A stretch of DNA of 64,000 bases from Trueperaceae bacterium (GTDB taxonomy: Bacteria; Deinococcota; Deinococci; Deinococcales; Trueperaceae): positions 64,001 to 128,000 of the forward strand of contig OZ243956.1 of the NCBI GenBank assembly GCA_965214405.1, read 5' to 3'. The translations under genes were made by a program, and so were the position numbers. The first letter of the stretch is position 1, and every line of letters starts with the position of its first letter. Positions 23,867-40,867 of the stretch are shown in pieces. Under the pieces are notes generated by a model. The model searched no databases and had not been told where the DNA came from. It worked only from the letters and a program-made list of their open reading frames with translations.

Positions 23867-26800
23867 GTGAGCCGTACTCTTGGCAAGGCGCAACGGCTCA
23901 CCGAACTGCTCGAGCTTCTCAAGCTCAAAGCCTGGACGAGCCGCGAACTCGCGGAACGCTTCGGGGTGCCCATCCGCACGGTTCAGCGCGACCTAGACAC
24001 GTTACGCGAGAGCGGGCATGGGGTCGCAACCTCAGAGGATTTCCGCCACCGCCTCACGCCGACGGGTTCGTCGCTTAACGCCGTCGAAGGACTCGCAGTT
24101 CACGCGGCGGTAAGGCTCTTGTACCACCACTCACCTACCCAGAACCGGTATTACCGCTCGGCTTTGGAGAAGCTGGCGGCGCTGCTGCCCGAACCTGCCA
24201 GGGGAATCGCGGCGGCGAGTGCGCAAGACCTGAAAGTGCGCCCCGGTGACGACCGGACTTTGGAGTTGGTCGCGCGGGCCTGGTTCGAGGGCAAAGTTCT
24301 GCGGTTCAAGTACCTCGCCCCGGATAGTTTTGAACCTGCCTGGCGCGAGTTGGAAACATATCTGCTCGAGGTCAGCCGCACTAACTTGGCCCTTTACGCC
24401 ATCGGTCAGGAGCGCACGTTCAACCAGGTGCTCACCTTCAAATTGTCCCGTATGAGCGATGTTCGTGTTTCGGACGATGCCTACGCCATCCCTGAAAGCT
24501 TTGCGCCGAGCGAATACTTGAGCGCTGCTTGGGGCGTGATGGGTGGGCAAGGGGACAAGGTGGCTAAAGTGCGCTTGCGCTTTGAGCCCGAAGCCGCCTC
24601 CCGCATCAAAGAGGGCGGCTATCCCAATTTGAGGGTAGAGAGGGAACTAGCGGACGGCTCGCTCGAGGTCGAAATCAAAGCAGGCACCGACAACACGGGC
24701 TTTCCAAAAGAACTCCTCCCCTGGGTACAGAGCTGGGGGCCACGGGTCGATGTTCTTGCGCCCAAGGCGCTGCGCGAACGCTGGCTGAGCGAGGCCGGTG
24801 CCGTCGCGTTGAGGCACCCTCACTTAAAAACGAGGCTCGCGTCACTAGATGACGCACCCAAAGGACAGACTGAACCTATGACGAATCTTTCAGCGAAGGC
24901 GGCGGCCCTGTGGGCCAAGAGTGGTGAAGACGAGCAGGGCTATAGCCTCGTGGGACACTTGTTGGACGTGGCGGCGGTGGCGCACGCCCTGCTCGAGCGC
25001 GAACCCCCGCAGACCCTGCGGCTTTACGCGGAGGATGTGGGGCTCGAGCCCGGCGACGCTAAGAAATGGATAGCGGCACTGGCGGGCTTACACGACATCG
25101 GCAAGGCGACCCCGGCCTTTCAGCGGCAGTGGGAACCGGGACGGCTGGTGGTCGAGGCAGCGGGGCTTACGTTTAGCAAGGGCGACAAGGGCACCGCACA
25201 CGGAAAACTCTCGCAGAAAATCTTGCAAGACGAGCTCAAAATCTACGGTTTAGGTAAGAGGCTCGCCGCTCAAGTTGCCGACGCCGTAGGCGCACATCAC
25301 GGTCTGCGAACCGCGAAGGGCGACTTGTCAGACAACGTCGTTCCGCAACAAGACATGGGCAACAATGCGTGGCAAGAAACCCGGCAAGAGCTGCTAACCG
25401 AGTTTCTAAAGGCCGTAGAAGTCGTTCAAATCTCACCCCCGATCACCGCCGCACTCACGGGCCAGGGCTTTATCCGATTAGCAGGCTTGACCAGCTTTGC
25501 CGATTGGATTGGCTCGACAGTTGACTTTTTTCCTACCGACCGCAAAGTAGAGAATTTGAGAGAGCACTTTCTCGACTCGTTGCTAAGGGCGCGCAAGGCC
25601 CTGAACGCGATAGGCTGGGAGCGCCGCGAGCCTTTAGCGGCGGAACCTCGAGCCTTCAACACCATCTTTCCTTTTGAGCCCAACGGTCTTCAAAAGCAAA
25701 TCGTCAACCTTGTCGAGCAAACGCGTGAACCCTCTCTTCTCATCGTCGAAGCGCCGATGGGGGAAGGAAAAACGGAGGCTGCCTTCTACGCCCACGTCAC
25801 TTTGCAACGGCAGTTGGGGCACCGAGGCTTGTACGTGGCGCTGCCCACGCAGGCAACGGGTAACGCCATGTTTGAGCGCACCAAAAACCTTCTCAGCACC
25901 TTCGAGCGCGACACGCCACCCGACTTGCAGCTTTTACACGGCTCGAGCCTGCTCAACGACGCTTACGCCACCATCCAAATCAAGGATGTAGATGGAGTGG
26001 ACAACACAGAGAGCGAGGTGTGGGCCAGAACCTGGTTCACCAGCAAAAAGCGGGCGCTGCTTTCGGAAAACGGGGTGGGCACGGTTGACCAGGCGCTCCT
26101 CAGCGTTCTAAACATCAAACATCAATTTGTGCGCCTGTGGGGATTGGGTAACCGCACGGTTGTTTTGGATGAAGTCCACGCGTATGAGCTTTACACGAGC
26201 AAGCTCATTGAGCGCCTAGTCTGCTGGCTGCACGCGCTCGGCTCGTCGGTCATCATCATGAGCGCGACGCTGCCCACCGCCAAACGACTAGATTTAGTCA
26301 AAGCCTTTGGCGGCGGCGCGGCCGAGGAGCCCGTCTCTTACCCACGCATCACGCAGGTGCTGGGCGGAGAGACCAAGGAGGTTTCGTTCTCGGTGAGAGA
26401 GCAGAAGCCTATGAGCTTGAAAAGGGTCAGCCTAGATCTCGAGACGGTAGCAAACCTTCTCACAGGCTTGATGACGGACGGCGGTTGCTCGGTGGCTATT
26501 CTAAACACGGTGCAGCGGGCGCAAACTCTTTACAGCCTGTTTGGGGAGGGTGAAGGTCTTGAGGCCGGAAAGCGTTTACCCGACGGCACCGAGGTCTATC
26601 TGTTCCACGCCCGTTATCCGGCGGAGGAGCGGAAAAAGCGGGAGGAGGCGGTGCTGGGGAAGTTCGGCAAGGGCGGAGAGCGCCCAGCCAAGGCCATTCT
26701 CATCGCCACGCAGGTGGTTGAGCAGAGTTTAGACCTTGATTTTGACGTGATGGTGAGCGACTTAGCGCCCGTCGATTTGCTCTTGCAGCGTGCCGGACGG

Positions 26801-27556
26801 ATGCACCGCCACGAGCGCGAACGTCCCGCCGCCCACGCGTCGCCCGTCCTTTACGTGGCAGGGCTGACCGACGCCGAGACGCTACCGGATGTCAGCAGCG
26901 AATACTTCGATTGGGTTTACGAAGCGTTCACGCTTTACATGACGTGGTGGACCTTGGCTGATAAGGAAGTTATTGCGTTACCTGAAGACTTTGAGCCGCT
27001 TATCAAAGCCGTATACGGCGAAACCGATTTTACGGCGCTGCCGGATTTCGCCCGTGAGGTGGTTGAGCAAAGCCGCGCGGACCAGGAAGGAGAAGCCGAC
27101 ACCCACAAGCGAAAAGCTGTCAGCTCAGCTAACGTGATACCTCTGCCAAACATCTACCCGACCACCGACGGCGTCAGTTCGGTTGTCAAGAGCGAGGACG
27201 ACGAAGACCCCAGCCTTCACGAGCACTACCGGCCCGCGACGCGTCTGGGCGATCCCAGCGTCACGGTCATCCCCTTACATAAAAAGGATGACAAGCTTTA
27301 CCTCGAGCCCTCCTACGAAACCGAAATCGTGTTGAACAAGGAACCCTCATGGCAAGCGGCGAGAACCCTCTATCTGCAACACCTCAAGCTGAGCCGTAAA
27401 GGTCTTGTGTTCGAGCTTGTTAAATATCCAGTACCCGCTTGGCAGAAGCAACCGCTGCTGCGTTACTGCTTCCCGCTCACTTTTGAGGAGAGGGTGGCAG
27501 TGGTTGGGAAATTGACCCTTCGCTATGACGATGCGCTAGGGATTGTGTATGGGTAG
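23867..27556 (+). CDS. cas3: HTH-WYL-WCX regulator fused in frame to type I-E Cas3 (HD nuclease + SF2 helicase)
   Basis: aa 1-~320: ELAERFGVPIRTVQRDLDTL HTH, WYL core (LYAIG..TFKLSRM), WCX (VRLRF..WVQSWGPRVDVLAPKALRE). From M338: WAKS, HLLDV, LHDIGK, AHHG, ADWIGS, APMGEGKT, DEVH, SAT, QRAGRMHRH. Confidence 0.92.
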   Translation: MSRTLGKAQRLTELLELLKLKAWTSRELAERFGVPIRTVQRDLDTLRESGHGVATSEDFRHRLTPTGSSLNAVEGLAVHAAVRLLYHHSPTQNRYYRSALEKLAALLPEPARGIAAASAQDLKVRPGDDRTLELVARAWFEGKVLRFKYLAPDSFEPAWRELETYLLEVSRTNLALYAIGQERTFNQVLTFKLSRMSDVRVSDDAYAIPESFAPSEYLSAAWGVMGGQGDKVAKVRLRFEPEAASRIKEGGYPNLRVERELADGSLEVEIKAGTDNTGFPKELLPWVQSWGPRVDVLAPKALRERWLSEAGAVALRHPHLKTRLASLDDAPKGQTEPMTNLSAKAAALWAKSGEDEQGYSLVGHLLDVAAVAHALLEREPPQTLRLYAEDVGLEPGDAKKWIAALAGLHDIGKATPAFQRQWEPGRLVVEAAGLTFSKGDKGTAHGKLSQKILQDELKIYGLGKRLAAQVADAVGAHHGLRTAKGDLSDNVVPQQDMGNNAWQETRQELLTEFLKAVEVVQISPPITAALTGQGFIRLAGLTSFADWIGSTVDFFPTDRKVENLREHFLDSLLRARKALNAIGWERREPLAAEPRAFNTIFPFEPNGLQKQIVNLVEQTREPSLLIVEAPMGEGKTEAAFYAHVTLQRQLGHRGLYVALPTQATGNAMFERTKNLLSTFERDTPPDLQLLHGSSLLNDAYATIQIKDVDGVDNTESEVWARTWFTSKKRALLSENGVGTVDQALLSVLNIKHQFVRLWGLGNRTVVLDEVHAYELYTSKLIERLVCWLHALGSSVIIMSATLPTAKRLDLVKAFGGGAAEEPVSYPRITQVLGGETKEVSFSVREQKPMSLKRVSLDLETVANLLTGLMTDGGCSVAILNTVQRAQTLYSLFGEGEGLEAGKRLPDGTEVYLFHARYPAEERKKREEAVLGKFGKGGERPAKAILIATQVVEQSLDLDFDVMVSDLAPVDLLLQRAGRMHRHERERPAAHASPVLYVAGLTDAETLPDVSSEYFDWVYEAFTLYMTWWTLADKEVIALPEDFEPLIKAVYGETDFTALPDFAREVVEQSRADQEGEADTHKRKAVSSANVIPLPNIYPTTDGVSSVVKSEDDEDPSLHEHYRPATRLGDPSVTVIPLHKKDDKLYLEPSYETEIVLNKEPSWQAARTLYLQHLKLSRKGLVFELVKYPVPAWQKQPLLRYCFPLTFEERVAVVGKLTLRYDDALGIVYG
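24839..24871 (+). promoter_or_regulatory. Putative WYL-regulator site and internal promoter for cas3, inside the fusion linker
   Basis: Perfect palindrome GCGTCA-CTAGA-TGACGC, N10, CAGACT, then N6 and the in-frame ATG at 24878; near-identical copy upstream of cas8e. Confidence 0.6.
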
Positions 27557-27606
27557 CTTTACCCAGAAGCCTTGTTATGGTTGCTGTGCAAGCGCGGAAG
27601 TTAGCC

Positions 27607-27635
27607 TTGACTAACCTCCCTATTTCGACTACTAT
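27607..27635 (+). promoter_or_regulatory. Sigma70 promoter of the TA operon
   Basis: TTGACT-N17-TACTAT; SD GAGGA before GTG 27651. Confidence 0.65.
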
Positions 27636-27650
27636 GCTATCGAGGACGTA

Positions 27651-28010
27651 GTGAGCTCTACGCCGTACATCGTTTACGAGTACGAGGACGAAAATGGTTA
27701 CTCCGAGTTTCGGGAGTGGCGCAAGGCGCTTAGACGCTCCAATCCTAGAGCTTCTGCGAAAGTCGATTGGCTCATCGCGCTGCTCGAGGACAAAGGTACA
27801 ACACTGTCGTTTCCCTACGTCAGTCATATAGACGGGCCGATTTATGAACTGCGCGGTAAAACCGGACGTAACACCGTACGCATTTATTACTGGCAACAGG
27901 ACAAAGAGGTATTCATCGCCGCCGCGGGCGAGGTGAAGCAGCAGAACCAAGCTGACCGCAAGCTTATTAGGAAAGCTTTGGCAGCTTACGAGGAATATAA
28001 CAAGGAGTAA
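27651..28010 (+). CDS. RelE/HigB-like (Gp49-type) toxin
   Basis: GPIYELR...NTVRIYY motifs; toxin-first order before an XRE gene. Confidence 0.8.
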   Translation: MSSTPYIVYEYEDENGYSEFREWRKALRRSNPRASAKVDWLIALLEDKGTTLSFPYVSHIDGPIYELRGKTGRNTVRIYYWQQDKEVFIAAAGEVKQQNQADRKLIRKALAAYEEYNKE

Positions 28011-28014: not shown

Positions 28015-28410
28015 ATGCCAAAACGTCCCTTGAAACGAGCGAGCGACCTAAGCCAAGAGTTTTTGCAAGACCCCGGTTACGCTGCTCTATACCGTGAGGT
28101 CGCTAACGAAGAGATTGGAGCGGCGCTGCGCACAGTGCGCGAGGCTAAGGGGTTAAGCCAGCGTGAGGTTGCCGAGCGCATGGGCGTGACGCGTCCACGT
28201 GTGTCGCAGATTGAAAGTGTCGAGGGTACGGCGTTGGCGCTCGAGGTGCTCAGCCGCTACGCCCGCGCGGTAGGGTGCCGCCTCGACATCACTTTGAAAG
28301 ACGCCGAGACCAACCATGAGGTTGCTGCGCTGTTTGTACCAACGCTCGAGGCTACCGCGCCAAAACCGCCCGGCGCGGAGCCTTATGAAAAAGCAGAGGG
28401 GGTAGCCTGA
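28015..28410 (+). CDS. XRE-family HTH antitoxin (HigA-like)
   Basis: LRTVREAKGLSQREVAERMGVTRPRVSQIES HTH; 4 nt after the toxin stop. Confidence 0.85.
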   Translation: MPKRPLKRASDLSQEFLQDPGYAALYREVANEEIGAALRTVREAKGLSQREVAERMGVTRPRVSQIESVEGTALALEVLSRYARAVGCRLDITLKDAETNHEVAALFVPTLEATAPKPPGAEPYEKAEGVA

Positions 28411-28465: not shown

Positions 28466-28555
28466 ATTTTCCCTACACGCGTGGGGATGAACCTTAGTAA
28501 TTCCACCTGTGGACGTAATAGTGAATATCCTCCCCACACCAGTGGGGCTGCGGTT
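28466..28555 (+). ncRNA. CRISPR mini-array / crRNA-like regulatory RNA (two degenerate repeats + 32-nt spacer)
   Basis: psiR1 ATTTTCCCTACACGCGTGGGGATGAACCT (28466-28494), spacer TAGTAATTCCACCTGTGGACGTAATAGTGAAT (28495-28526), psiR2 ATCCTCCCCACACCAGTGGGGCTGCGGTT (28527-28555); same 29+32 period and hairpin as the main array. Confidence 0.88.
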
Positions 28556-28562: not shown

Positions 28563-28623
28563 AAGTAGTAATTCCACCTGTGGATGTAAAGCCTTGACTC
28601 CGATACTGTCCCGTGTGTATAGT
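28563..28623 (+). promoter_or_regulatory. AAG PAM + partial protospacer overlapping a sigma70 promoter
   Basis: AAG 28563-28565; TAGTAATTCCACCTGTGGATGTAA (28566-28589) matches 23/24 of the spacer 5' part; TTGACT 28594-28599, N18, TATAGT 28618-28623. Confidence 0.82.
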
Positions 28624-28776
28624 GAAAAAGCGTGGCTGGGGCCTACCGCGAAATAGTCACCCCACCACGCCTCAAGGGACATGCCCTCTGAATCCGATTT
28701 TACCTTAGCTTTGGCACAAATTCAAAGGGCGTCCACTTTAACGTAGGGAGGTTTCCACCTCTCGGACGGGAGTAAC

Positions 28777-28962
28777 GTGTTAGACCTCGAGGACACCACC
28801 TACCAAGCGTTTAGGGACAGCCTGTATCAGGTTGACGAGCGAGACCGCGCCGTGCTGTGGGAGTTCTGGCCCCACTTTCAATCGGCTTTGAACTCTCGAC
28901 ATGGAGAGTGGCAGAAGCTGACGTTAACGGGCTCGCTCGATGACGACGATGTAGACCGTTAA
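28777..28962 (+). CDS. 61-aa acidic small protein, candidate CRISPR-repressed toxin
   Basis: GGGAG SD-like sequence before GTG; lies between the targeted promoter and a terminator; no family recognised. Confidence 0.5.
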   Translation: MLDLEDTTYQAFRDSLYQVDERDRAVLWEFWPHFQSALNSRHGEWQKLTLTGSLDDDDVDR

Positions 28963-28967
28963 CCGTG

Positions 28968-29001
28968 GTGAGGCGCATCCCGCGCCTCACTTCTTTATTT
29001 T
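28968..29001 (+). terminator. Rho-independent terminator
   Basis: GTGAGGCGC-ATCCC-GCGCCTCAC followed by TTCTTTATTTT. Confidence 0.85.
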
Positions 29002-29058: not shown

Positions 29059-30555
29059 ATGTTTAACCTCATCCATGAACCTTGGCTGCGGGTCGAAAAC
29101 CCAGACGGCTCGCTAGGCCAGGACTCGCTAAAGGGGGTTTTATTAAACGCCCACCGCTACGCGCGGCTGGCCCACCCCTCCCCCGCCGTGCTCCCGGCGC
29201 TGCACCGCTTTCTACTGGCGGTGCTGTACCGGGTACTGGACGAACCACGCAGTACCGATGAAGGGGTTGATTTGTTCAAACAGGGTCGGTTTCCGGCGGA
29301 GCGCGTCGGTGCTTATCTCGAGCACTGGCAAGACCGCTTCGACCTGTTCCACCCTGAAAGGCCCTTTTACCAGGTGCCGGACTCGGAAGATAAGGTGTCA
29401 GGGGTCGCCCGGCTCGCAGCCGAACTCGCCAGCGGCACGAACAAACTCCTCTTCGACCACACCGCGGAGGCCGACCCGCCGGAGTTGACGCACGCCGAAA
29501 TCGCGCAACTGCTCGTGACCCGGCAGATGACCGCCATCCCCGAAGGCGCGGGCTACAGCCCCAGCCCGGCGGGCGGCGCGGCGTTCGTGCTGCCGCAGGG
29601 TCGCAACCTGTTCGAGACGCTGGTGCTCAACCTCGTTCCTTATTCTGAGGAGGAGAACGAGGACGACGCGCCCATTTGGGAAGGGGCTACGCCGAAGAGC
29701 GCGGCGGTAAAAGCCGCCAAGCCGCGCGGCTCGAGAGGGCTTACCGAACGTTACACCTGGCTAACGCGCATCGTTAAGTTGCAAGAACCCGAGGGTGACG
29801 CGCCTGTGTCGGCGCTGCATTATGCGGCAGGCATCAAGTTCGATGGCGGCGACAGCCCCGACCCCATGTTGGCTTACCGCAAAGATGAAAAGCGCGGGCT
29901 CCTCCCGGTATCTTTCAACAAGTACAAGGCGTTCTGGCGGGACTTTCAGGCCCTAATACCCAATCCCGACAGCGGAAGCTACTTAGCGCCCCAGACGGTA
30001 AAACACGCTCGCAACATATATGAAGAATTAGAGCGCACCGACCCCCTCACCTTACTGGTTTCCGGCCTGAGCAATGACAAGGCCAAGGTCGTGCTGTGGC
30101 GTACCGAACAGTTCAACGTGCCGCAGGTCCTCCTTCAAAATCCGGGGGCTTACGCCGAGTTGACGCGGCTGCTCGAGTACGCCGACAACGGCGGGCGCAC
30201 CCTCTACGGCGCGACGCAGCGCTTGGCGGAAAAGTTGCTGAGCATTGGCGAACGTAAACCCGACCCCGCCGACGTTCGCAACCTGGCCGCGAGTTTTCCC
30301 GCCAGTATGCACTACTGGAGCAGGCTCGAGACCCGCTTTCCCGAACTGCTGGAGCGCTTTGAGACTCAGACCTTTGATGAGCGGTTCAGTTGGTGGTTAG
30401 GGCAAATCACCCTTGTAACGCGCGAAGCCTGGGAGCTTGCCTTAAAGAGCGCCGGGGAAAACGAGCGCGCCTGGCGGGCCGGGGCCGAGGCGAGCAAGGT
30501 CATCAACACCCACCTCAAACGCCTGCGCGAACAGACAGCCGAGCCAGCCCCATAG
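29059..30555 (+). CDS. cas8e: Type I-E Cascade large subunit Cas8e (CasA/Cse1)
   Basis: FNLIHEPWL, LHRFLLAVL, DRFDLFHPERPFYQ, GRNLFETLVLN, DPM, AFWRDF. Confidence 0.93.
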   Translation: MFNLIHEPWLRVENPDGSLGQDSLKGVLLNAHRYARLAHPSPAVLPALHRFLLAVLYRVLDEPRSTDEGVDLFKQGRFPAERVGAYLEHWQDRFDLFHPERPFYQVPDSEDKVSGVARLAAELASGTNKLLFDHTAEADPPELTHAEIAQLLVTRQMTAIPEGAGYSPSPAGGAAFVLPQGRNLFETLVLNLVPYSEEENEDDAPIWEGATPKSAAVKAAKPRGSRGLTERYTWLTRIVKLQEPEGDAPVSALHYAAGIKFDGGDSPDPMLAYRKDEKRGLLPVSFNKYKAFWRDFQALIPNPDSGSYLAPQTVKHARNIYEELERTDPLTLLVSGLSNDKAKVVLWRTEQFNVPQVLLQNPGAYAELTRLLEYADNGGRTLYGATQRLAEKLLSIGERKPDPADVRNLAASFPASMHYWSRLETRFPELLERFETQTFDERFSWWLGQITLVTREAWELALKSAGENERAWRAGAEASKVINTHLKRLREQTAEPAP

Positions 30556-30563
30556 GAGGCATC

Positions 30564-31154
30564 ATGACAGAAACCGTGACAAACAGCACGACAAACACGC
30601 CCTCGAGCAAACAAGCAGATGTAGCCGAACGCTTCATCAGTCACCTGGACAAACTCAATCCAGCCAAAACGCCGGGAGCCAAGCGGCAACACTTAGCCGA
30701 GCTTAGAAAAAGTCTCAGCTTCGACTTAGGCACGCACGTTCCGGCCTTTCCTTATGTTGAGCCATTTGTAGCAACGCTGGACGAGAGGACAGGCTACTGG
30801 CGACGCGCTATGTTCTACCTCGTCGCGGGGCTCTACGCCTCTCATCCAGAGTCCGCCTCTCAGGGGGGTTTCGGCAAGGCGATGGCGGTTCTTAGTCACA
30901 GACGCGAGAGCGGGAGCCTGGAGAAACGTTTTCTCGCGCTCTTGGCTGCGGAAGAAGCAGGGCAGCTCGTCTACCACTTGCGCCAACTCGTCAGCCTGCT
31001 CAAGGCCGAGGGTGTCGGCCTAAACTACGCAACGCTGCTCCGCGACCTGTTCGGGTGGCAACACCAAGACCGCTATATTCAGCGCCGCTGGGCGGGGCAG
31101 TATTACGGCTTTACCTCCGATGCTCCCGACACCTCCGCCACAAAAGAAACCTAG
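30564..31154 (+). CDS. cse2: Type I-E small subunit Cas11 (CasB/Cse2)
   Basis: [52 protein letters not shown]. Confidence 0.92.
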
Positions 31155-31165
31155 AAAGGATTCCT

Positions 31166-32323
31166 ATGAAAGCACTTTTAGAAATTCACGCCCTACAAAA
31201 CTTCGCCCCCAGCAACTTGAACCGCGACGACACCGGCAGCCCCAAAGATTGCGAGTTCGGCGGCTACCGCCGCGCCCGCATCAGTTCGCAAAGCCTAAAG
31301 CGGGCCATGCGGACCTACGTTCGCGCCGAGAAGCTTCTTGAGGATGACGCGTTGGCTGTGCGTACCAAGCGCGTAACCGCCGAACTGGTTGGGCAACTTA
31401 AAAAGAAGGGTCGGGACGAGGCCGAAGCTGGCAAGGTGGTCGAACTCGCGTTGGCGGGCCTGTCGCTCAGCGTAGACGAGGGCAAGACGCAGTACCTTCT
31501 CTACCTTGGCAAGAGCGAAATTCGGGACATGGCGAACAGCATTGACGCGTATTGGGACGAACTACTCGAAGCTGTCCCCGCAGAGGATGACAAGAAAAAA
31601 TCAAAAAAGGACGCAAAGGGCAACGTTCCAAAAGACCTCGTTGCCGCTTTGGAAAAAAGCTTAGACGGCGGCAAAGCCGTGGACTTAGCCCTCTTCGGGC
31701 GGATGCTCGCCGACCTGCCCGAGAAAAATCGGGACGCCGCCTGTCAGGTGGCCCACGCCATCAGCACCAACGCGGTGCAACGCGAGTTCGACTTCTATAC
31801 CGCCGTCGACGACCTCAAGCCGGAGGACAACGCGGGCGCGGACATGCTCGGCACGGTTGAATTTAACAGCGCCTGCTATTACCGCTACATTGCGCTCGAC
31901 TTAGAGAAGCTAGCCGCCAACTTGCAGGGCGACGGTGAGCTTTTAGAAAAAGGTCTTAGGGCTTTTCTCGAGGCGAGCTACTTCGCCGCGCCCTCGGGCA
32001 AACAGAACAGCTTTGCGGCCCACAACCCGCCGGGTTTTTTTGCCGTGAGCGTGCGCGCTAATGCCGCGCCGCGCAACCTCGCCAACGCCTTTGAGAAGCC
32101 GGTGCACCCGGACCGGGAGCGGTCCCTTACCGAGGCCTCGGTAGCGCGTTTAGACGAGCAGTGGGCTGCTTTTGACAAGGCGCTCGGCACGAGCGACGCA
32201 AACGAGATTGCGGTGCTCAAGCTTACGGGAAACGTGGCGCACTTGGCGACGAACGTACGTGAGAGCCTAAAGGACGTCGTCACCTCGAGCGTCGCGGCAG
32301 CCCAACGTGCTGTGGGTGCGTAA
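31166..32323 (+). CDS. cas7: Type I-E backbone Cas7 (CasC/Cse4)
   Basis: [59 protein letters not shown]. Confidence 0.95.
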
Positions 32324-32988: not shown

Positions 32989-33593
32989 GCCTCCACCTCT
33001 CCAAACTCACGCCGAACCTGCGCAGCGCCAAAGCCCGCCGCGACCTGCAAAACCCTTACGACCTGCACCGCACCCTGAGCCGGGGCGTGGCGCGGGAGGA
33101 TGAGCGGCTGTTGTGGCGGGTTGACGGAACGAACCAGCCCAGCATTTTGGTACAAACCCTTCACCAACCCGACTGGTCTTACCTCGTCGAGGATGTGCCC
33201 CCCGGTTACCTGAAGGAATCTCCGGCGTCCAAATCCGTAGACCTCGCTTTTGTAAAAGGTCAGACCCTGACGTTTCGCTTGAGGGCAAATCCTACGGTAA
33301 AACGGACGCTCTCGGGCAAGAAAAAGCGTCTGGCTCTTTACGAGGTGGAGGAGCAGCTTGGCTGGCTCCGGCGTAAGGCGGCGGGGGGCGGCTTTAACGT
33401 CTTGTCCGCCACCTCACTGGGTCAGGAAACGCTCGAGGCTAAGAGAAACGCTCAAACCGTGACGCTTCACGCCGTCACCTTTGAAGGGCGGTTGATTGTG
33501 GTGGACCCGCCAACGTTTTTGGCAACGCTCAAAACGGGCCTCGGCTCCGCCAAGGGCCTCGGCATGGGCTTACTTTCCATTGCGAGGGCCTGA
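32985..33593 (+). CDS. cas6e: Type I-E Cas6e (CasE/Cse3) crRNA processing nuclease
   Basis: YDLHRTL, FRLRANPT, Gly-rich loop GLGSAKGLGMGLL. Confidence 0.93.
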   Translation: MSLHLSKLTPNLRSAKARRDLQNPYDLHRTLSRGVAREDERLLWRVDGTNQPSILVQTLHQPDWSYLVEDVPPGYLKESPASKSVDLAFVKGQTLTFRLRANPTVKRTLSGKKKRLALYEVEEQLGWLRRKAAGGGFNVLSATSLGQETLEAKRNAQTVTLHAVTFEGRLIVVDPPTFLATLKTGLGSAKGLGMGLLSIARA

Positions 33594-33594
33594 C

Positions 33595-34578
33595 ATGGCA
33601 AGTCTACGCAACCTCCGCGAACTCCCCAAATTCCGCGACGGCCTTTCCTACCTCTACATCGAGCGCGGGCGCGTCGAACAGGACGCCAAGGCCATCGCCT
33701 GGTACGGCGAAGAAGGCAAGGTGAGCGTGCCCGCCGCCGCTTTGGGCGTGCTCATGCTCGGCCCCGGCACAAGCATCACCCACGAGGCGGTCAAGGCTCT
33801 GGCCGACAACGGCTGCTTAATCAACTGGGTGGGCGAGGCGGGCGTGCGCTTTTACGCGGGCGGCGCGGGCGAAACGAGGAGCAGCGCCAACCTCATGCGC
33901 CAAGCGGCGTGGTGGGCGGACCCCGGTAAACACCTTCAGGTGGTGCGGCGCATGTACACCATGCGCTTCGATGAGCGCTTGTCGCCCACGCTGACCCTCG
34001 AGCAAATCCGCGGCAAAGAGGGCGTGCGGGTGCGCACCGTCTACGCCCAGGCAAGCCGGGAGTGGGGTGTGCCCTGGCGCGGGCGCTCCTACCGCCGCGG
34101 GCGCTGGGGCGACGCCGACCCCGTCAACCGCGCGCTCTCCGCCGGGGCGGCTTGCCTTTACGGCGTCTGCCACACCGCCATCCTCTCGGCGGGCTACTCC
34201 CCCGCGCTCGGCTTCGTCCACACCGGCAAGCAGCTCTCGTTCGTTTACGATATTGCCGACCTCTACAAAACCGAGGTGCTCGTCCCCGCCGCCTTTAGGC
34301 TCGTGGCCGAATCCGAAGAAGGAATTGACAGCCGCGTCAGACATCATCTTAGAGACACAATGCGAGAGTCGAGGCTGCTCGAGCGCGTGGTCGACGACCT
34401 CCACAGCCTCTTCAGCAACGACGCCGGGAAGGGCGAACGCTTCGCCGCGGACGGCGCGGCGCCCGGTGAACTGTGGGACCCGGAGGGCAACGTGGCCGGG
34501 GGGGTGAGTTATGGTCGTGATGACGCTGGAGAAGGTGCCGACGAGTCTGCGTGGGGAGCTGAGCCGCTGGATGATTGA
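33595..34578 (+). CDS. cas1: Type I-E Cas1
   Basis: LMLGPGTSITHEA, WVGEAGVRFY, IRGKEG, SPALGFVH, SFVYDIADLYK. Confidence 0.95.
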   Translation: MASLRNLRELPKFRDGLSYLYIERGRVEQDAKAIAWYGEEGKVSVPAAALGVLMLGPGTSITHEAVKALADNGCLINWVGEAGVRFYAGGAGETRSSANLMRQAAWWADPGKHLQVVRRMYTMRFDERLSPTLTLEQIRGKEGVRVRTVYAQASREWGVPWRGRSYRRGRWGDADPVNRALSAGAACLYGVCHTAILSAGYSPALGFVHTGKQLSFVYDIADLYKTEVLVPAAFRLVAESEEGIDSRVRHHLRDTMRESRLLERVVDDLHSLFSNDAGKGERFAADGAAPGELWDPEGNVAGGVSYGRDDAGEGADESAWGAEPLDD

Positions 34579-34864
34579 GGTTTCTACGGGCGTGTTCGTC
34601 GGCAAACTGAGCGCCCTGGTGCGCGACCTGCTGTGGGAAAAGGTGAGCGAGAACAAACGCGCGGGGCGCTGCTGTCAGGTCTACCGCACCAACAATGAAC
34701 AGGGCTTCGCTATTCGGATGGTGGGCGATTCGGAAAGGAGCGTGATCGACTTAGACGGTGTACAATTGGTCGCGGTGAAAAACGCGACCTGGGAACGGAT
34801 GTTTGTCGAGTCTGCGGAGGACCATGACAACCCAACAGGAGACATAGAGGCCCCTGAAGCTTAG
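34511..34864 (+). CDS. cas2: Type I-E Cas2
   Basis: MVVMTLEKVPTSLRGELSRWMIEVSTGVFVG, NNEQGF, DLDGVQL. Confidence 0.93.
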   Translation: MVVMTLEKVPTSLRGELSRWMIEVSTGVFVGKLSALVRDLLWEKVSENKRAGRCCQVYRTNNEQGFAIRMVGDSERSVIDLDGVQLVAVKNATWERMFVESAEDHDNPTGDIEAPEA

Positions 34865-34884: not shown

Positions 34885-37800
34885 CTATTCCCCACGCAGG
34901 TGGGGATGAACCGGGCAGGTTCTGGGTAGCCTCCACCCAGCCCGCCTATTCCCCACGCAGGTGGGGATGAACCGGAGAAGCGCCCCCTTCCACCCGCCTC
35001 TTGAGCCTATTCCCCACGCAGGTGGGGATGAACCGTGCGTGCGCAGCGCCTCGATCTGGGGACGCTCCTATTCCCCACGCAGGTGGGGATGAACCGCGAC
35101 CCCGGCGAGCGCTCGAGCGCGCACATCACTATTCCCCACGCAGGTGGGGATGAACCGACGCCCGGATTTTCTCCCCTCTCCAGCGAGCCCTATTCCCCAC
35201 GCAGGTGGGGATGAACCGGAGCCTCTACACACGTGCATCGCCCGCTGCACTATTCCCCACGCAGGTGGGGATGAACCAGCGCCCGTCTTCACTTTTTTGC
35301 TTGAGGTCCCCTATTCCCCACGCAGGTGGGGATGAACCGGCGGTGCTTTTCGAGGGCTCGGACGTGGAGTGCTATTCCCCACGCAGGTGGGGATGAACCG
35401 TCCACGTCGCAGGCGCTGAGGGGCTGGCCGTCCTATTCCCCACGCAGGTGGGGATGAACCGGTGCCGGGGGAGACCTTGACGCGCTTGTCTCCCTATTCC
35501 CCACGCAGGTGGGGATGAACCGGGAGCGCTGGCACATCCCGCAAGCGGGCGTGGCTATTCCCCACGCAGGTGGGGATGAACCGCCATCAGCAAGTTCGGC
35601 GCGGGGGTGGGGGACCTATTCCCCACGCAGGTGGGGATGAACCGGTGTCGCGCTGCAAGCGGTAGCGTACGGTCACTATTCCCCACGCAGGTGGGGATGA
35701 ACCGTCATAAACAAACAAGTCATAGTTGACGATCAACTATTCCCCACGCAGGTGGGGATGAACCGTTCCTGCCCGACGAGTGGTTCCCTTACGCGGACTA
35801 TTCCCCACGCAGGTGGGGATGAACCGCCTCGAGCAGCCCCAACCACCAGAACTCCCCCTATTCCCCACGCAGGTGGGGATGAACCGCCGGGCGAGGCGGT
35901 CACGCTTAAATCAGGAGACTATTCCCCACGCAGGTGGGGATGAACCGGTAAACGCACCCAAATTGATGCCGACGACGCCCTATTCCCCACGCAGGTGGGG
36001 ATGAACCGTCGGCCTTGAAAAAGTCGATGACGCCCCCGCCTATTCCCCACGCAGGTGGGGATGAACCCACCTCGGCCAGTGCGTTTTGACTAGCTGAGGC
36101 CTATTCCCCACGCAGGTGGGGATGAACCGCCAACCGCTTCACCATCCACGTGATGGCCGCGCTATTCCCCACGCAGGTGGGGATGAACCGCCGTCCGCGT
36201 AGTCCCAGCTCTCCACCACCCCCTATTCCCCACGCAGGTGGGGATGAACCGGGCACCCGCTTTTCCTCCCCCGCGAAGACCGCCTATTCCCCACGCAGGT
36301 GGGGATGAACCGGGGTCGCCCGAACTGGACGACCCCTCCGCGATCTATTCCCCACGCAGGTGGGGATGAACCGGGGCAACCATGAAAAAGCGCGTCATCG
36401 GCGCGCTATTCCCCACGCAGGTGGGGATGAACCGGGTTTGGCTGAACTTTCTGGGGTGCGTGAGGACTATTCCCCACGCAGGTGGGGATGAACCGCAAGC
36501 CATCCTTATGCGGAATGTGAACAACCCCTATTCCCCACGCAGGTGGGGATGAACCGTCCACACTCACATGTACATCCCCCTGCCAACCCTATTCCCCACG
36601 CAGGTGGGGATGAACCGTGAGGGCGCGGCTTTCCAGCACGCCCGCCATACTATTCCCCACGCAGGTGGGGATGAACCGCCGCCACTTCCGCCTCTTGCCT
36701 CTTGAGGGCTCTATTCCCCACGCAGGTGGGGATGAACCGCGTCACGCCGCCCTCTCTCGTCACCAAGGTCACTATTCCCCACGCAGGTGGGGATGAACCG
36801 AACTTTGTCTCGCAAAGAACACAGTGATAACCTATTCCCCACGCAGGTGGGGATGAACCGCATGGACAACATTGACACGCAAGTACAGACTTCTATTCCC
36901 CACGCAGGTGGGGATGAACCGGCCATGCTAGACAAGGGTGCAACCGAGATACCTATTCCCCACGCAGGTGGGGATGAACCGAGCCGCCGCCGCCCGCGAA
37001 AGTGCTAATGACCCTATTCCCCACGCAGGTGGGGATGAACCGTCTCTTTAAGGCCTAGCGCGAAGAGGTCCGGCCTATTCCCCACGCAGGTGGGGATGAA
37101 CCGTAACCGTCGCTTGCTTGATAGTACGGGATACCCTATTCCCCACGCAGGTGGGGATGAACCGGTCACGGCGCTTTCGTATGAGTCTATTAACGCCTAT
37201 TCCCCACGCAGGTGGGGATGAACCGGTACTCCTCGACGCCCTAGCCCACGCTGGGGCCTATTCCCCACGCAGGTGGGGATGAACCGGCCCCTCCATCGCC
37301 GCCGCTAAGCGGTTCCCACTATTCCCCACGCAGGTGGGGATGAACCGTATCAGGCGCTCACTGGGTCCATAGAAGAACCTATTCCCCACGCAGGTGGGGA
37401 TGAACCGCTGTCGCACTGACATAAACTTTAGTAGTAGCCTATTCCCCACGCAGGTGGGGATGAACCGTTCAAACAGACTCTCGGTGTTTCTCTGTGACGC
37501 TATTCCCCACGCAGGTGGGGATGAACCGTTTTCGGGCGGGGTAGACAATGGCCATCCCGACTATTCCCCACGCAGGTGGGGATGAACCGGAGCGTTAAAT
37601 ACGACGAAACGGGAGAACCCCCTATTCCCCACGCAGGTGGGGATGAACCGCGATAAGTGAAGTGATAAGTGACCCAAAAAGACTATTCCCCACGCAGGTG
37701 GGGATGAACCGATACTACGCCCGGAAATTGAACGTGACGACCTCTATTCCCCACGCAGGTGGGGATGAACCGTAGAGGCCCTGAAGATTTCCTGTCAGCT

Positions 37801-39908
37801 TGTTCTATTCCCCACGCAGGTGGGGATGAACCGGAGGGCTCTTCGATGAGTGACGCGACGACTGACTATTCCCCACGCAGGTGGGGATGAACCGTGCTAA
37901 CAGTAGGGTGTCGTTCTGAGTCGGAACTATTCCCCACGCAGGTGGGGATGAACCAGGGTGCCGCCCGCGTCCGGCTCGCCGTCCCGCCTATTCCCCACGC
38001 AGGTGGGGATGAACCGCTCCTGGTAGTGCTCCTGGCTCTGCTGGGAGCCTATTCCCCACGCAGGTGGGGATGAACCGACGAGCCCTTGAAAGTTGATCAG
38101 GTTGTCCTCCTATTCCCCACGCAGGTGGGGATGAACCGGATGACGTACCACTCATCCACTTCACGCTTCCTATTCCCCACGCAGGTGGGGATGAACCGGT
38201 TACGAATGAGGCCGAGGTAGCCAGCGTGCTCTATTCCCCACGCAGGTGGGGATGAACCGCCCATGAACCGGGCGACGAGCTGCACGACTGGCTATTCCCC
38301 ACGCAGGTGGGGATGAACCGAACCGAGAAAAGAGCGGAGCCGCGCCTCAACCCTATTCCCCACGCAGGTGGGGATGAACCGGTGGACATTGTCGCCGCTG
38401 AACGGCGTCTGGTCTATTCCCCACGCAGGTGGGGATGAACCTAGCCCTGAGCGGCTTGCACTGCGCCGATGAGCTATTCCCCACGCAGGTGGGGATGAAC
38501 CGGCGCAGGAGATGCTGGCGAAACTTCCGCTCACTATTCCCCACGCAGGTGGGGATGAACCCATTACCAAAAAGCGCGCGTTGCCACCCAACCACTATTC
38601 CCCACGCAGGTGGGGATGAACCGCAGATGGGCGTCTCCGAAGAGCAGTTCGCCAACTATTCCCCACGCAGGTGGGGATGAACCGCCTGACAACACTTACC
38701 CACTGAGTCGGGTTCCTATTCCCCACGCAGGTGGGGATGAACCGTCCCTTAACGTTCAATCAGCAGCTTCACCCGCTATTCCCCACGCAGGTGGGGATGA
38801 ACCGCTTAGGCGTACGCACAATAGTGGCTATCTCTGCTATTCCCCACGCAGGTGGGGATGAACCGATTCTGGGTTCCGAGCTCGAAGACTGGCCTGCCTA
38901 TTCCCCACGCAGGTGGGGATGAACCGCATAAGACGGTGCTTGACGCTGTGAACATCACTATTCCCCACGCAGGTGGGGATGAACCGAGTAAAGCGGCGGC
39001 GTAGCGGGGGCGGTAGGCCTATTCCCCACGCAGGTGGGGATGAACCGCATGACAGGAGGGTGGGAAGACATCGCCCTGCCTATTCCCCACGCAGGTGGGG
39101 ATGAACCGCCTCCAAGGCAACTATGAAGCCATTGACCCCCTATTCCCCACGCAGGTGGGGATGAACCGCACCAATCCACAGGTGTGTTTAGCAAAAAACC
39201 TATTCCCCACGCAGGTGGGGATGAACCGATGGTGGGCGAGGAGTGGTCTCTGTAGATGCTCTATTCCCCACGCAGGTGGGGATGAACCGAGGTCGGCGCT
39301 GTAGGCCCTCGCGTACAGGTCCTATTCCCCACGCAGGTGGGGATGAACCGGTGGCCGCCGAGAGCCCGTCCGCCTCGAGCGCCTATTCCCCACGCAGGTG
39401 GGGATGAACCGCTGAAGTCGATCCCGAGAACTCCGGCAAGCTCCTATTCCCCACGCAGGTGGGGATGAACCGTTCGCCACCGACCAGGCGGGCGGCTCTA
39501 TGGCCTATTCCCCACGCAGGTGGGGATGAACCGTTCACCGTATGAGCCGCTACGATGCTTCCCGCCTATTCCCCACGCAGGTGGGGATGAACCGCGGGAC
39601 TCGGTGAAGATCGCTTCGTGATTCGCTATTCCCCACGCAGGTGGGGATGAACCGTGTGGGTTTTCGCTTTCTAAGAGTGGGTTTCCTATTCCCCACGCAG
39701 GTGGGGATGAACCGGATACCCTCGTCAAAGCGCCCCAGCTCATCCCCCACGCTCGACCTATTCCCCACGCAGGTGGGGATGAACCGGACGCTGTGGGGCT
39801 GTGGGGGATGTGCGAATCCTATTCCCCACGCAGGTGGGGATGAACCGCGTCACCTCGTCGTCGGTCGAAAAGATGAGCGCTATTCCCCACGCAGGTGGGG
39901 ATGAACCG
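34885..39908 (+). CRISPR. Type I-E CRISPR array, 83 repeats / 82 spacers
   Basis: 29-nt repeat CTATTCCCCACGCAGGTGGGGATGAACCG; counted by hand: 63 spacers of 32 nt, 18 of 31 nt, one of 43 nt; orientation from similarity to the I-E 3' handle ATGAACCG. Confidence 0.98.
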
Positions 39909-40111
39909 GCTCGAGCCATTTCGTGGATATCGGCTAAGTTTTGGTTTCTTTCGGGGGTCGTGATAGCTTTTATGTGAAACCTCTTAAACGGGTTTTCTAA
40001 AGGGCGTCAATTCCTAGGCCATTGGCCTTTTAGTATCTTTATGTTATTATGTGTGATAATTATAGGTCAGGAGGTGATGACATAAATAATAAGATGTGAT
40101 AACATTGTGCT

Positions 40112-40516
40112 ATGACTACTACGCATCTCACCTGGAAGTTTCCGCAGCTCCTCGAGAGGGAGCGCATCACGGTGGCCGCACTCCTGCGGGAGTTAGAAGG
40201 CCAGGTAGGCCGCGCCACGCTCTACCGCTGGAGCACCGAAGAACCCCGCTACATCGACCGTGAGGTGCTCGAGAAAGTTTTGGGCGCGCTCTCGCACATG
40301 ACGGGTAAGTCTTTGAGCGTAAGCGACCTTTTAGAAGTCGAGCCGTCACCCAGGGGCCTCAGCGCCTCGGGCCTGCCTTATACCGGCGACCCCGACACCG
40401 ACGAGGTCTTAGACGACGTTGAGCTTGTGAAACGCATTCGCAGCTTAGAGCGCGGTGAGGCCGCGCTCGTTCCCTGGGAAGAGGTTAAGAGGGAGCAACG
40501 GTCCAGGCGCGGGTGA
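40112..40516 (+). CDS. Cro/C1-type HTH protein, probable antitoxin
   Basis: LLERERITVAAL...VGRATLYRW HTH, SVSDLLE; C-terminal VPWEEVKRE typical of antitoxins; upstream of a RelE-like gene. Confidence 0.7.
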   Translation: MTTTHLTWKFPQLLERERITVAALLRELEGQVGRATLYRWSTEEPRYIDREVLEKVLGALSHMTGKSLSVSDLLEVEPSPRGLSASGLPYTGDPDTDEVLDDVELVKRIRSLERGEAALVPWEEVKREQRSRRG

Positions 40517-40568
40517 GGATGTAAGGGCCAAAGGGCCTGACCCCAGGGTCAATCTACACTCTTGGTCA

Positions 40569-40867
40569 TGACCCATAAGATTTCACTTACCGACGAGGCT
40601 CGAGCCGACCTAGACGGCATCAAAGACAACCACACCTACAGCGCCACCGAGCGCAAAATAGACGAGCTGGCAACCGAGCCGGGGCAACGCGGGGAGCCCC
40701 TGCGCGGCGACCTCAAGGACTACCGGAAGCTCAAGGCTGCTAAGCGTTGTCGCGTCATCTATAGAGTCACCGTAGAAGAAGGGCGGGTAACGGTTGTGGT
40801 GATGGGTATTCGCAAAGAGGGTGACAAAAGAGACGCCTGTGAGATCGCCAGAAAGAGGTTGACGTGA
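40569..40867 (+). CDS. RelE/ParE-family toxin
   Basis: The ORF track lists 40562-40867; ATG placed near 40569 after TACACT (approximate); ISLTDEARADL, GEPLRGDLKDYRKLK, RVIYRV, VMGIRK. Confidence 0.75.

Follow-up and report, generated by a model that had tools for sequence, protein, structure and literature searches.

A type I-E CRISPR-Cas locus of a Trueperaceae-like bacterium with a candidate CreTA-type guard and a separate, putative WYL regulatory layer

Among the described systems closest to the locus analyzed here, the type I-E CreTA of Citrobacter rodentium comprises a translated 96-bp ORF in the gap between cas3 and casA, for which toxicity and a dependence on Cascade, but not on cas3, have been shown (Nat Microbiol 2025, PMC12055562). 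In the type I-E system of Salmonella enterica, CreR has been proven (bioRxiv 10.1101/2023.03.10.532045). The type I-B CreTA of Haloarcula hispanica and a type I-F protein CreT guard against loss or inhibition of Cascade (bioRxiv 10.1101/2024.01.05.574328). According to Shmakov et al. (PMC10120712), mini-arrays accompany about 19% of the I-E loci of bacteria; their targets lie at the cas8 promoter, and TA genes are enriched in their vicinity. Thermus is not mentioned in the main text of that study, and we found no description of small acidic ORF families in the portion of the article consulted.

WYL regulators of both signs are known, including the activators DriD and PafBC and the defense-linked repressors BrxR and CapW (PMC10853764, PMC11804915, PMC9122601, PMC11662680). 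DriD recognizes the operator consensus CGxC(X)7GxCG with an AT-rich gap (PMC10853764), and PafBC binds a -26 motif that replaces the -35 element (PMC11804915). Fusions of WYL and Cas3 were noted in 2014 (Makarova et al. 2014, PMC4012209). A sequence-only reading of the DNA analyzed here knew of no described system with its combination of parts; this overstated the novelty, as descriptions of I-E CreTA, of I-E CreR and of WYL-Cas3 fusions have each been published.

The analyzed window, a stretch of 64,000 nucleotides, contains a chromosomal type I-E CRISPR-Cas locus of a Trueperaceae-like bacterium. All coordinates refer to this window, and all features lie on its + strand. The parts listed in the sequence-only reading were all recovered at their positions. 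The assignment to type I-E follows from the presence of cas3, cas8e, cse2, cas7, cas5, cas6e, cas1 and cas2 together with an array. The genes from cas8e to cas2 (29059..34864) matched one Pfam family each: cas8e (29059-30555), cse2 (~30564-31154), cas7 (~31166-32323), cas5 (32323-32988), cas6e (32985-33593), cas1 (~33595-34578) and cas2 (34511-34864), with likely starts given. The CRISPR array (34885..39908) consists of 83 repeats of 29 nt and 82 spacers of about 32 nt (63 of 32 nt, 18 of 31 nt and one of 43 nt). An orphan repeat is present elsewhere in the genome. We distinguish two separate cis-regulatory layers in this locus, each of a known kind. The explanation that we prefer, tentatively but with a reasonable chance of being correct, is a CreTA-type guard plus a separate WYL layer, with the type II TA pairs of the locus as independent cargo.

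Comparison with the array repeat and folding identified a degenerate mini-array (28466..28555) between cas3 and cas8e. It is composed of PsiR1 (28466-28494), which differs from the array repeat at 7 of 29 positions and folds into a hairpin of -10.5 kcal/mol, the spacer PsiS (28495-28526), and PsiR2 (28527-28555), in which the stem is kept (-10.6 kcal/mol) despite 12 of 29 mismatches. Like CreTA and CreR elements, the cas locus thus holds a degenerate repeat-spacer-repeat unit with hairpins and a 5' handle preserved (ATGAACCT compared to ATGAACCG, 7 of 8 positions matching). It also shares with them a spacer that is partly complementary to a PAM-flanked promoter site: sequence matching revealed an AAG PAM (28563-28565) followed by a 32-nt PsiS target (28566-28597; PAM and target together 28563..28597), which agrees with PsiS at 23 of the 24 PAM-proximal positions and at none of the 8 distal ones. 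This is the sole credible target in the genome, and the number of such matches expected by chance is 0.00. At its end, the target overlaps with the -35 element of a sigma-70-type promoter, TTGACT-18-TATAGT (28594..28623), matching 10 of 12 consensus positions.

The same layout of mini-array, AAG target abutting the -35 element, SD with small ORF, and cas8e was found in eight other Deinococcota genomes (G261, G356, G181, G191, G198, G263, G168 and G336). From one genome to the next, spacer and target change in sequence but keep matching each other, while PAM, register, hairpins and -35 placement are kept, and the promoter of the relatives is likewise placed relative to the target. The proposal of the sequence-only reading that a Cascade-guided RNA is aimed at a promoter is supported by this co-variation. 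Alternatively, the elements could be decayed remnants without function: the mini-array would be a fragment of a dead array, and local duplications would have left behind the 24-nt duplicate and the palindromes described below. The degenerate repeats and the orphan repeat elsewhere in the genome would fit such decay, but the conservation of PAM, register, hairpins and -35 placement while spacer and target co-change in the eight other genomes argues against it, as does the conservation of both 20-nt palindromic sites in the related locus L001, and we consider decay very improbable. Rather, these sequence features make the mini-array credible as a Cascade guide directed at the promoter of a small insulated transcription unit, which is probably silenced.

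The unit behind this promoter starts with a 5' leader hairpin (28630..28670; -20.5 kcal/mol, z -2.95). In L001 the stem of the hairpin differs and the loop (CCTAC..AATAGTCA) is kept. Downstream lies an acidic ORF of 61 aa (28777..28962), which we regard as a candidate Cascade-repressed effector or toxin. Compared to L001, its dN/dS was 0.12, whereas the shifted frames gave 0.49 and 3.4, and on this sequence comparison the ORF is under purifying selection. The L001 homologue carries CTG in place of the GTG in the window and may therefore be poorly translated. An AF2 model of the product shows three helices and an acidic tail (pLDDT 77.6), consistent with an acidic, helical and soluble-looking protein. 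Searches of Pfam, NCBIfam and PHROG and a fold search gave no family or fold match and no resemblance to known toxins. What points to a toxin-like product is its position, which in G336 is occupied by a RelE/ParE-like ORF, and the behavior of the unit as a cassette. The ORF is followed by an intrinsic terminator (28967..29001) with a 10-bp stem containing seven GC pairs (28967-28991) and the T-run TCTTTATTTT. The terminator folds at -19.9 kcal/mol (z -6.4), and its stem-loop and T-run are identical in L001.

In architecture, the locus resembles the I-E CreTA of C. rodentium (PMC12055562): in both, a long gap between cas3 and cas8e contains a mini-array and a small ORF preceded by a strong promoter and an RBS, and a PAM-flanked PsiS target is located at the promoter. 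In C. rodentium, however, the ORF measures 96 bp, CreA is encoded on the opposite strand and ATG serves as the PAM, whereas the candidate ORF of the window encodes 61 aa and is unrelated, with the mini-array on its own strand and a terminator behind it. With the H. hispanica I-B CreTA and the I-F CreT (bioRxiv 10.1101/2024.01.05.574328) the locus would share the scheme of Cascade and a crRNA-like RNA repressing a toxin promoter. Those systems belong to other subtypes, the I-B toxin is a tRNA-sequestering RNA, and no sequence similarity was found. The I-E mini-array, its target and the nearby TA genes are also similar to the mini-arrays with cargo genes of Shmakov et al. (PMC10120712).

The mini-array could also serve CreR-type autorepression only. 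Then the promoter at 28594 would be the promoter of the Cascade operon, transcribed by readthrough of the terminator, the mini-array would tune Cascade to crRNA load and anti-CRISPRs, and the 61-aa ORF would be a harmless leader or cargo. The proven I-E CreR of S. enterica (bioRxiv 10.1101/2023.03.10.532045) lends weight to this reading. There, too, a degenerate mini-array lies between cas3 and casA and partially matches an AAG-flanked site upstream of the casA promoter. In that system, the match comprises 15 consecutive nt, about 140 bp separate the target and casA, and an ORF is not reported, whereas here the match is 23/24 and the target lies at a distance of 493 nt to cas8e, with an ORF and a terminator in between. 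Autorepression is further favored by a simple scan of the + strand, which gave no consensus promoter between 28624 and 29200; the 5' region of cas8e has only a -10-like hexamer and no -35 element. In five family-B loci, moreover, the small ORF runs directly into the SD or start of cas8e, with a terminator-like hairpin in only one of them. Because ORF and cas8e are contiguous there, the family-B mini-array is explicable by Cascade autorepression alone.

In the window and in L001, by contrast, the strong terminator is followed by a duplicated operator and -10-like block before cas8e. The small ORF accompanies the mini-array in 9/9 genomes, and its purifying selection in the window counts against autorepression alone, as a pure RNA regulator needs none. 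Near-identical cas genes also work without the cassette: loci L041 and L043 (cas3 96.7% and cas8e 99.7% identical) differ by a clean indel of about 425 bp that corresponds to the cassette. Among 17 related loci, all seven long cas3-cas8e gaps hold a mini-array, and the remaining 10 gaps measure 21-79 nt. On balance, we see autorepression alone as possible but rather doubtful.

Under the preferred CreTA-type guard, the mini-array would be processed into a crRNA-like RNA of 61 nt, in which the 5' handle AUGAACCU is followed by a 32-nt guide and the PsiR2 hairpin. A search for sequencing runs turned up none of RNA. Within Cascade, this RNA would pair with the AAG-flanked stretch 28566-28589, and the eight PAM-distal mismatches should prevent Cas3 licensing. 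Cascade positioned on the -35 element of the 28594-28623 promoter would then repress the insulated unit of 5' hairpin, 61-aa protein and terminator. The candidate product would be made only if Cascade or the crRNA-like RNA fails, e.g. through an anti-CRISPR or a cas lesion, and would most likely be growth-inhibitory.

The second layer involves Cas3 itself. A single ORF of 1229 aa (23867..27556) encodes a wHTH-WYL-WCX::Cas3 fusion with Pfam matches to HTH_11 (10-51), WYL (131-201), WCX (234-313) and Cas3_HD (349-555), followed by DEAD/helicase and Cas3_C matches; NCBIfam matched the cas3 core and the cas3 HD part. The N-terminal HTH, WYL and WCX matches, in this order, place the regulator module (residues 1-335; 23867..24871) in the wHTH-WYL-WCX class. 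It shares this domain order with DriD, PafBC, BrxR and CapW, from which it differs by its fusion to Cas3. The closest identifiable solved sequences are those of DriD (8tp8, 7tzv; E ~4e-6 to 8e-6), the matches being weak and confined to the WYL-WCX part, and PafBC is a weaker solved relative by sequence. Membership in the CapW/BrxR repressor clade, in which an RWHVR motif is conserved in the WYL domain (PMC11662680), was considered and rejected, as neither RWHVR nor WHV occurs in the 335-aa module sequence, where the equivalent stretch reads LALYAIG by eye.

This in-frame fusion also occurs in L001 and in two further close database proteins. Of 16 related loci examined, 15 encode the regulator in a gene of its own, and in the 16th (L036) it is unfused as well, with a broken frame. 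Alignment to separate cas3 genes indicates that the Cas3 moiety (24878..27556) has retained its ancestral start (MTNLSAKAAALWAKS...): in L040, L041 and L052, the unfused cas3 gene begins at the position aligned to ATG 24878. The -10-like hexamer CAGACT (24866-24871) is located 6 nt before this ATG, and from these sequence features we infer that the internal Cas3 start is used. To the WYL-Cas3 fusions noted in 2014 (Makarova et al. 2014, PMC4012209), the locus adds that the fusion took place in a lineage in which the relatives still have a separate regulator gene upstream, and that the old cas3 start and its operator persist within the ORF.

The sequence-only reading had also described two cognate-looking sites for WYL-Cas3, which we took as 24840-24859 and 29007-29026, and both are indeed present. 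Site 1 (CGTCACTAGATGACGCACCC; 24840..24859), a CGTC-N7-GACG palindrome with CACCC, precedes the Cas3 moiety and ends 19 nt 5' of the internal ATG, and site 2 (CGTCACTACATGACGCACCC; 29007-29026) precedes cas8e and is followed by the -10-like hexamer TACACT (29033-29038). The two 20-nt sites are identical at 19 of 20 positions, and a search for the 20-nt site returned two matches with 0.00 expected from 100 shuffles. CGTCA-N5-TGACG palindromes occur only four times in the 4.5-Mb genome. About 70 nt around site 2 are paralogous to the region around site 1, and homologues of site 1 are found at the WYL/cas3 junction in L001, L037, L052 and L040. The shared core CGTC-N7-GACG fits the DriD consensus with its AT-rich gap, and the sites, like that of DriD (PMC10853764), lie near the start of a putatively regulated gene. 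Judged by these sequence comparisons, the two palindromic sites appear real, paralogous and of the DriD/WYL-operator type, and we consider them candidate operators. The wHTH-WYL-WCX module probably binds both, which would co-regulate the Cas3 moiety and the Cascade operon. This regulation is probably responsive to single-stranded DNA and could have either sign, since WYL regulators include activators as well as repressors.

This bears on the integrated circuit put forward in the sequence-only reading, in which WYL-Cas3 activates Cascade via site 2 and Cascade silences the toxin, so that loss of either Cas3 or Cascade kills the cell. In its favor, one of the two cognate sites lies before cas8e, and DriD and, with a weaker match, PafBC, the solved relatives identifiable from sequence, both act as activators. 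The sites are centered near -31 with respect to -10-like hexamers without a -35 element, and PafBC uses a -26 motif instead of the -35 (PMC11804915). However, the defense-linked WYL regulators BrxR and CapW are repressors, and with both signs represented in the family the claim that WYL-Cas3 sustains Cascade is not supported. The extension of surveillance to Cas3 is weak as well. Because the WYL module lies at the N terminus, it need not be lost when the Cas3 part is truncated or inhibited, and it would still be made after most lesions in that part. Inside the fused ORF, Cas3 still has its ancestral start, along with an operator and a -10-like element of its own; the fusion is absent from the 16 related loci mentioned above, and cas3 is dispensable in the tested I-E CreTA (PMC12055562). 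We judge the integrated circuit to be unlikely. A more elaborate version, a two-tier guard, appears slightly less likely still: here an ssDNA-sensing WYL module fused to Cas3 would activate the Cas3 moiety and Cascade via the duplicated DriD-type operators, Cascade would repress a new small acidic toxin, and either failing tier would release the toxin.

Two TA pairs, each with a toxin-family ORF beside a small DNA-binding ORF as assigned by sequence matches, resemble type II TA systems, the second with a weak HTH. The first is preceded by a promoter-like TTGACT-17-TACTAT (27607..27635; 9 of 12 consensus positions) and encodes a Gp49/HigB-like toxin of the RelE-ParE family (27651..28010; 119 aa; PF05973, 43.3 bits, a PHROG 'toxin' family match, and TIGR02683 scoring below its cutoff) and an HTH_3 antitoxin-like protein (28015..28410; 131 aa; PF01381, 47.1 bits); the L001 copies are 95% and 89% identical, respectively. 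The second pair (40112..40867) comprises the weak HTH ORF (40112-40516; HTH_26, 20.3 bits, below the cutoff of 22) and a RelE/ParE toxin ORF (40562-40867; PF05016, 29.2 bits; TIGR02385, 29.6 bits). In the preferred explanation, both pairs are independent cargo.

The locus illustrates how a regulator gene can fuse with Cas3 and leave the earlier cas3 start and operator in place within the ORF, and the duplicated DriD-type operators offer a concrete, testable route for control of a type I-E system by a WYL sensor. If the two-tier guard were true, CreTA-style addiction would cover the whole interference machinery and not Cascade alone. Should the 61-aa protein and the unrelated products of family B prove to be toxins repressed by Cascade, they would represent new protein CreT families and the first CreTA-type guards in Deinococcota, and the natural presence/absence pair of G181 and G201 would allow a direct test of what the cassette costs and what it gains.

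Domain and family searches together with a repeat scan recovered every part that the sequence-only reading had listed for this locus, which lies on a single contig of 4.5 Mb, in a window covering bases 64001-128000. In the WYL-Cas3 ORF (23867-27556), HTH_11, WYL and WCX domains precede a complete Cas3 with its HD, helicase and C-terminal parts. This ORF is followed by a first toxin-antitoxin (TA) pair with its own promoter-like site upstream (27651-28010, Gp49/RelE-ParE-like; 28015-28410, HTH_3), by cas8e, cse2, cas7, cas5, cas6e, cas1 and cas2 (29059-34864), by a CRISPR array of 83 repeats and 82 spacers, and by a second TA-like pair of a weak HTH ORF and a RelE/ParE ORF at the end of the region (40112-40867). 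Both TA pairs are treated here as putative cargo, because they have their own promoters and family matches and no guide target lies near them. The first array repeat begins just 20 nt past the cas2 stop (34864-34885), and therefore any array leader must overlap cas2. Near the far end of the array, one spacer (39715-39757) is 43 nt long, compared to 31-32 nt for the others. Rfam searches of 22000-42000 at gathering threshold gave no match.

Housekeeping genes flank the locus, among them those for RF-2, cdaA, def, fmt and der. Elsewhere in the window, ORF 48644-50491 matches the erythromycin esterase family over its full length (PF05139, E = 1.6e-75), and the G+C content falls to 0.55-0.59 between 4000 and 14000, compared to 0.62-0.68 in the surroundings. 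In the whole genome, CTCGAG is the commonest hexamer (10639 copies, 7.2 times expectation), GCTCGAGC reaches 25.7 times expectation, and GGATCC (67 copies) and CCCGGG (189 copies) are strongly avoided. The nearest public relative of the window is a Trueperaceae MAG (L001), with a Cas8e 89% identical.

A degenerate mini-array (28466-28555) is located between the first TA pair and cas8e. Its first repeat-like part, PsiR1, has 7 mismatches to the array repeat and is followed by a spacer, PsiS, of exactly 32 nt and by a second repeat-like 29-mer, PsiR2, with 12 mismatches; the repeat hairpin is kept in both. On the PsiS strand, 71 bases further downstream, lies a target with AAG on its 5' side; of its first 24 positions 23 match PsiS, and of the last 8 none does (0.00 such matches expected in shuffled sequence). 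PAM and seed together occur at six places in the whole genome, and only the target in the window exceeds 16 of 32 matches. The 32-nt target runs four bases into the -35 element of TTGACT-18-TATAGT, the best promoter-like site of the promoter scan. Downstream of this promoter follow a 5' hairpin, a 61-aa ORF (28777-28962) preceded by the Shine-Dalgarno sequence GGGAG, a strong terminator (-19.9 kcal/mol, z = -6.4) and, 58 nt past the T-run of the terminator, cas8e. The leader of the 61-aa ORF also contains a 21-codon upstream ORF (28682-28747) with an AAGGGA Shine-Dalgarno sequence; L001 has a 20-codon upstream ORF in the same leader position, with a sequence little conserved relative to that of the window.

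A search for phage-borne mimics of PsiS gave no exact match. Six matches to a handle-plus-seed motif from related loci (family B, see below) were judged to be chance, none of them having a repeat-like stem. The genome also has an orphan repeat-like 29-mer beyond the window (G000:C1:1047365-1047393). Its last 20 nt equal the array repeat exactly, and it adjoins an apparent IS transposase remnant, with a sugar-nucleotide gene downstream. No second repeat was found beside it, and no target could be called for its "spacer", the seed of which is a very common word in the genome.

Cas8e relatives were found in 100 of the 364 genomes of the phylum Deinococcota, and the 30 best loci as well as L001 were scanned for mini-arrays, defined as a repeat-like hairpin with handle followed by a spacer with a nearby PAM-flanked partial match. 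Credible matches were obtained in 7 of the 30 loci (the window, L007, which is the same place as L001, L012, L013, L017, L018 and L024). Two further candidates (L026 and L035) were rejected since they have GAG PAMs and no ATGAACC handle; their targets are also misplaced, 600 nt off or within cas8e. G336, which the scan had overlooked, and G168 were added from direct sequence reading. All nine genomes share the same order of mini-array, AAG, target, TTGAC(A/T) -35 element, leader, ORF and cas8e. Spacers and targets vary between genomes, yet they pair with each other within each, with guide-target mismatches at position 6 in several. This comparative evidence supports a functional mini-array.

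The gap between cas3 and cas8e spans 456-1543 nt in 7 of 17 measured related loci and 21-79 nt in the remaining 10. A mini-array is present in all seven long gaps. Two genomes, G181 and G201, are 96.7% identical in cas3 and 99.7% in cas8e and differ by one clean indel of about 425 bp, which corresponds precisely to the unit of mini-array, target, promoter, leader hairpin and small ORF. Therefore, the small ORF is dispensable for Cascade and moves together with its guide.

In G336, a HigA-like HTH gene, the mini-array, a TTGACT promoter and a RelE/ParE-like ORF follow each other from cas3 to cas8e. This ORF, which the promoter would drive, resembles an "addiction killer"; a homopolymer run interrupts its frame at one point, which may be an assembly error. 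The best guide match in this genome is weak, with the AAG on the opposite strand beside the -35 element.

The nine small ORFs comprise family A (the window and L001), family B (five loci), another small ORF in G263 and the frame-broken RelE/ParE-like ORF of G336. Between the window and L001, 19.0 changes at 38.3 synonymous sites and 13.0 at 141.7 nonsynonymous sites were counted (dN/dS = 0.12), compared to dN/dS values of 0.49 and 3.4 in the two shifted frames. Judged by this pattern of substitution, the 61-aa ORF is a real gene; its L001 homologue has CTG at the start position. Family-B ORFs occur in 5 of the 364 genomes, each directly upstream of cas8e, with dN/dS of 0.05-0.58 for pairs with unsaturated dS. 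All five family-B leaders (L040, L041, L045, L046 and L057) measure 104 nt from TTGACA to the start codon and contain a hairpin with co-varying stems and a conserved loop, GCCCGCCGCCAAG(C/T).., followed by GGTGAG and the Shine-Dalgarno sequence GGAGGTG. The window and L001 each have an analogous leader hairpin; its stems differ between these two, which share the loop CCTAC..AATAGTCA.

The AlphaFold2 model of family A has three helices and an acidic, disordered tail, and that of family B a helical hairpin, likewise with an acidic tail (pLDDT 77.6 for each). Searches of Pfam, PHROGs and NCBIfam assigned the small ORFs to no family, Foldseek found nothing in the PDB at E <= 0.001, and the ESM Atlas held no usable match for family A or B. 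Wide structure matches from VIA-align (best Z 6.0) were set aside as generic helical likeness. Family A has just 2 relatives among 5.8 billion clusters and one real relative among 1.84 billion representatives, four further rows being judged spurious (multi-stretch matches in long proteins); it was not found in JGI metagenome contigs, and neither family was found in viral contigs. Family B forms 14 clusters, some from Truepera, and all names given are "hypothetical protein". No homology between the two families was detectable (hhalign probability 1.5%).

About 19% of bacterial I-E loci are reported to have mini-arrays that lie between cas3 and cas8 and have PAM-flanked targets at the cas8 promoter, with TA cargo enriched close to them (PMC10120712). 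In the I-E system of S. enterica, a crRNA-like RNA, CreR, is described as autorepressing PcasA (bioRxiv 10.1101/2023.03.10.532045). For C. rodentium I-E, a Cascade-repressed toxin guard, CreTA, is reported within the 495-bp cas3/casA gap; its toxic ORF, 96 bp long and translated, has a strong promoter and an RBS ahead of it, and silencing needs the Cascade genes, not cas3 (PMC12055562). A protein CreT is reported in another system (bioRxiv 10.1101/2024.01.05.574328), and a 2026 preprint names I-B and I-F as CreTA subtypes. Given these precedents, the module of the window belongs to a described kind. Whether it would act as CreTA, as CreR or as both depends on the toxicity of the small protein and on where the cas8e transcript starts.

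Two operator-like palindromes, site 1 (24840-24859) and site 2 (29007-29026), differ at one base of 20 and share the core CGTC-N7-GACG with an A/T-rich gap. This core fits the consensus CGxC(X)7GxCG of DriD, the Caulobacter WYL activator, homologues of which have this site about 17 nt ahead of their own start codon (PMC10853764). In its loose form the core is frequent in the genome of the window (82 copies, compared to 135 expected from base composition). Therefore, we put weight on the identity at 19 of 20 positions, on the conservation of both sites in L001 and on homologous sites at the WYL/cas3 junction in G258, G263 and G356. The two sites lie in paralogous stretches of about 70 nt that share the order hairpin, 14 nt, palindrome, CACCC, 6 nt and a -10-like (C/T)A(G/C)ACT. 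Site 1 lies 19 nt ahead of ATG 24878, from which the peptide aligns with the start of Cas3 in relatives that encode it separately. Between the -10-like hexamer and this ATG lie 6 nt, and the mRNA would therefore be leaderless, as is common in Deinococcota. With every transcription start placed from such hexamers, the sites are centred about 31 nt ahead of the starts and no -35 element is seen, a placement that fits either an activator substituting for the -35 element or a repressor covering it. No motif common to all loci was found upstream of the WYL genes. Separate WYL genes of Thermus/Meiothermus type (L038, L041, L043, L045, L047, L049, L051 and L053) have TGGAC-like direct repeats about 6-7 nt apart, 30-40 nt ahead of the start codon, distinct from the palindrome of the clade of the window.

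Of 20 further loci, 17 have a regulator homologue ahead of cas3. The junction was read in 16 loci, and in 15 of these the homologue stands as a gene of its own (in L036, the G336 locus, its frame is broken); fusion to cas3 was seen only in the window, L001 and a few proteins from databases. The solved structures identifiable by sequence as relatives of the WYL module (residues 1-335) are those of DriD (8tp8 and 7tzv) and, with a weaker match, 7p5x, which we take to be PafBC. All have modest E-values and match over the WYL-WCX part only; four more PDB entries also matched (9cu3, 7u02, 9pfq and 9fnd). DriD and PafBC are described as activators triggered by single-stranded DNA, PafBC binding a -26 motif instead of a -35 element (PMC10853764, PMC11804915), whereas the defence-linked BrxR and CapW are described as repressors released by single-stranded DNA (PMC9122601, PMC11662680). 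The RWHVR motif of the latter two is absent from the WYL module of the window.

The sequence-only reading had joined these parts into one circuit, in which WYL-Cas3 sustains Cascade expression and Cascade silences a toxin, and knew of no described system with this combination. Taken singly, the guard module has published precedent, as does the WYL-Cas3 fusion, already noted in 2014 (PMC4012209). The integrated model requires that the WYL part activates cas8e and that loss of Cas3 abolishes this activity. However, the WYL module is N-terminal, so that it would survive inhibitors acting on the Cas3 part as well as stop codons, frameshifts or insertions there, an internal start could make Cas3 independently, and cas3 was reported as dispensable in the one tested I-E CreTA (PMC12055562). 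We therefore regard the full two-tier model as quite unlikely. From sequence, the small-gene circuit and the WYL circuit are each plausible on their own.

For the small-gene circuit, we propose that Cascade loaded with the mini-array RNA would occupy the -35 element of the 28594 promoter but would not recruit Cas3. This occupancy would silence the insulated gene for the small acidic protein, which would be released upon failure of Cascade. At the family-B loci, cas8e is fed by the corresponding promoter as well, so that the guide there probably controls the small gene and cas8e alike. In the lineage of the window, the presence of the terminator and of the duplicated operator block suggests that cas8e gained its own WYL-controlled start, and the guide would thereby have been left controlling the small gene alone.
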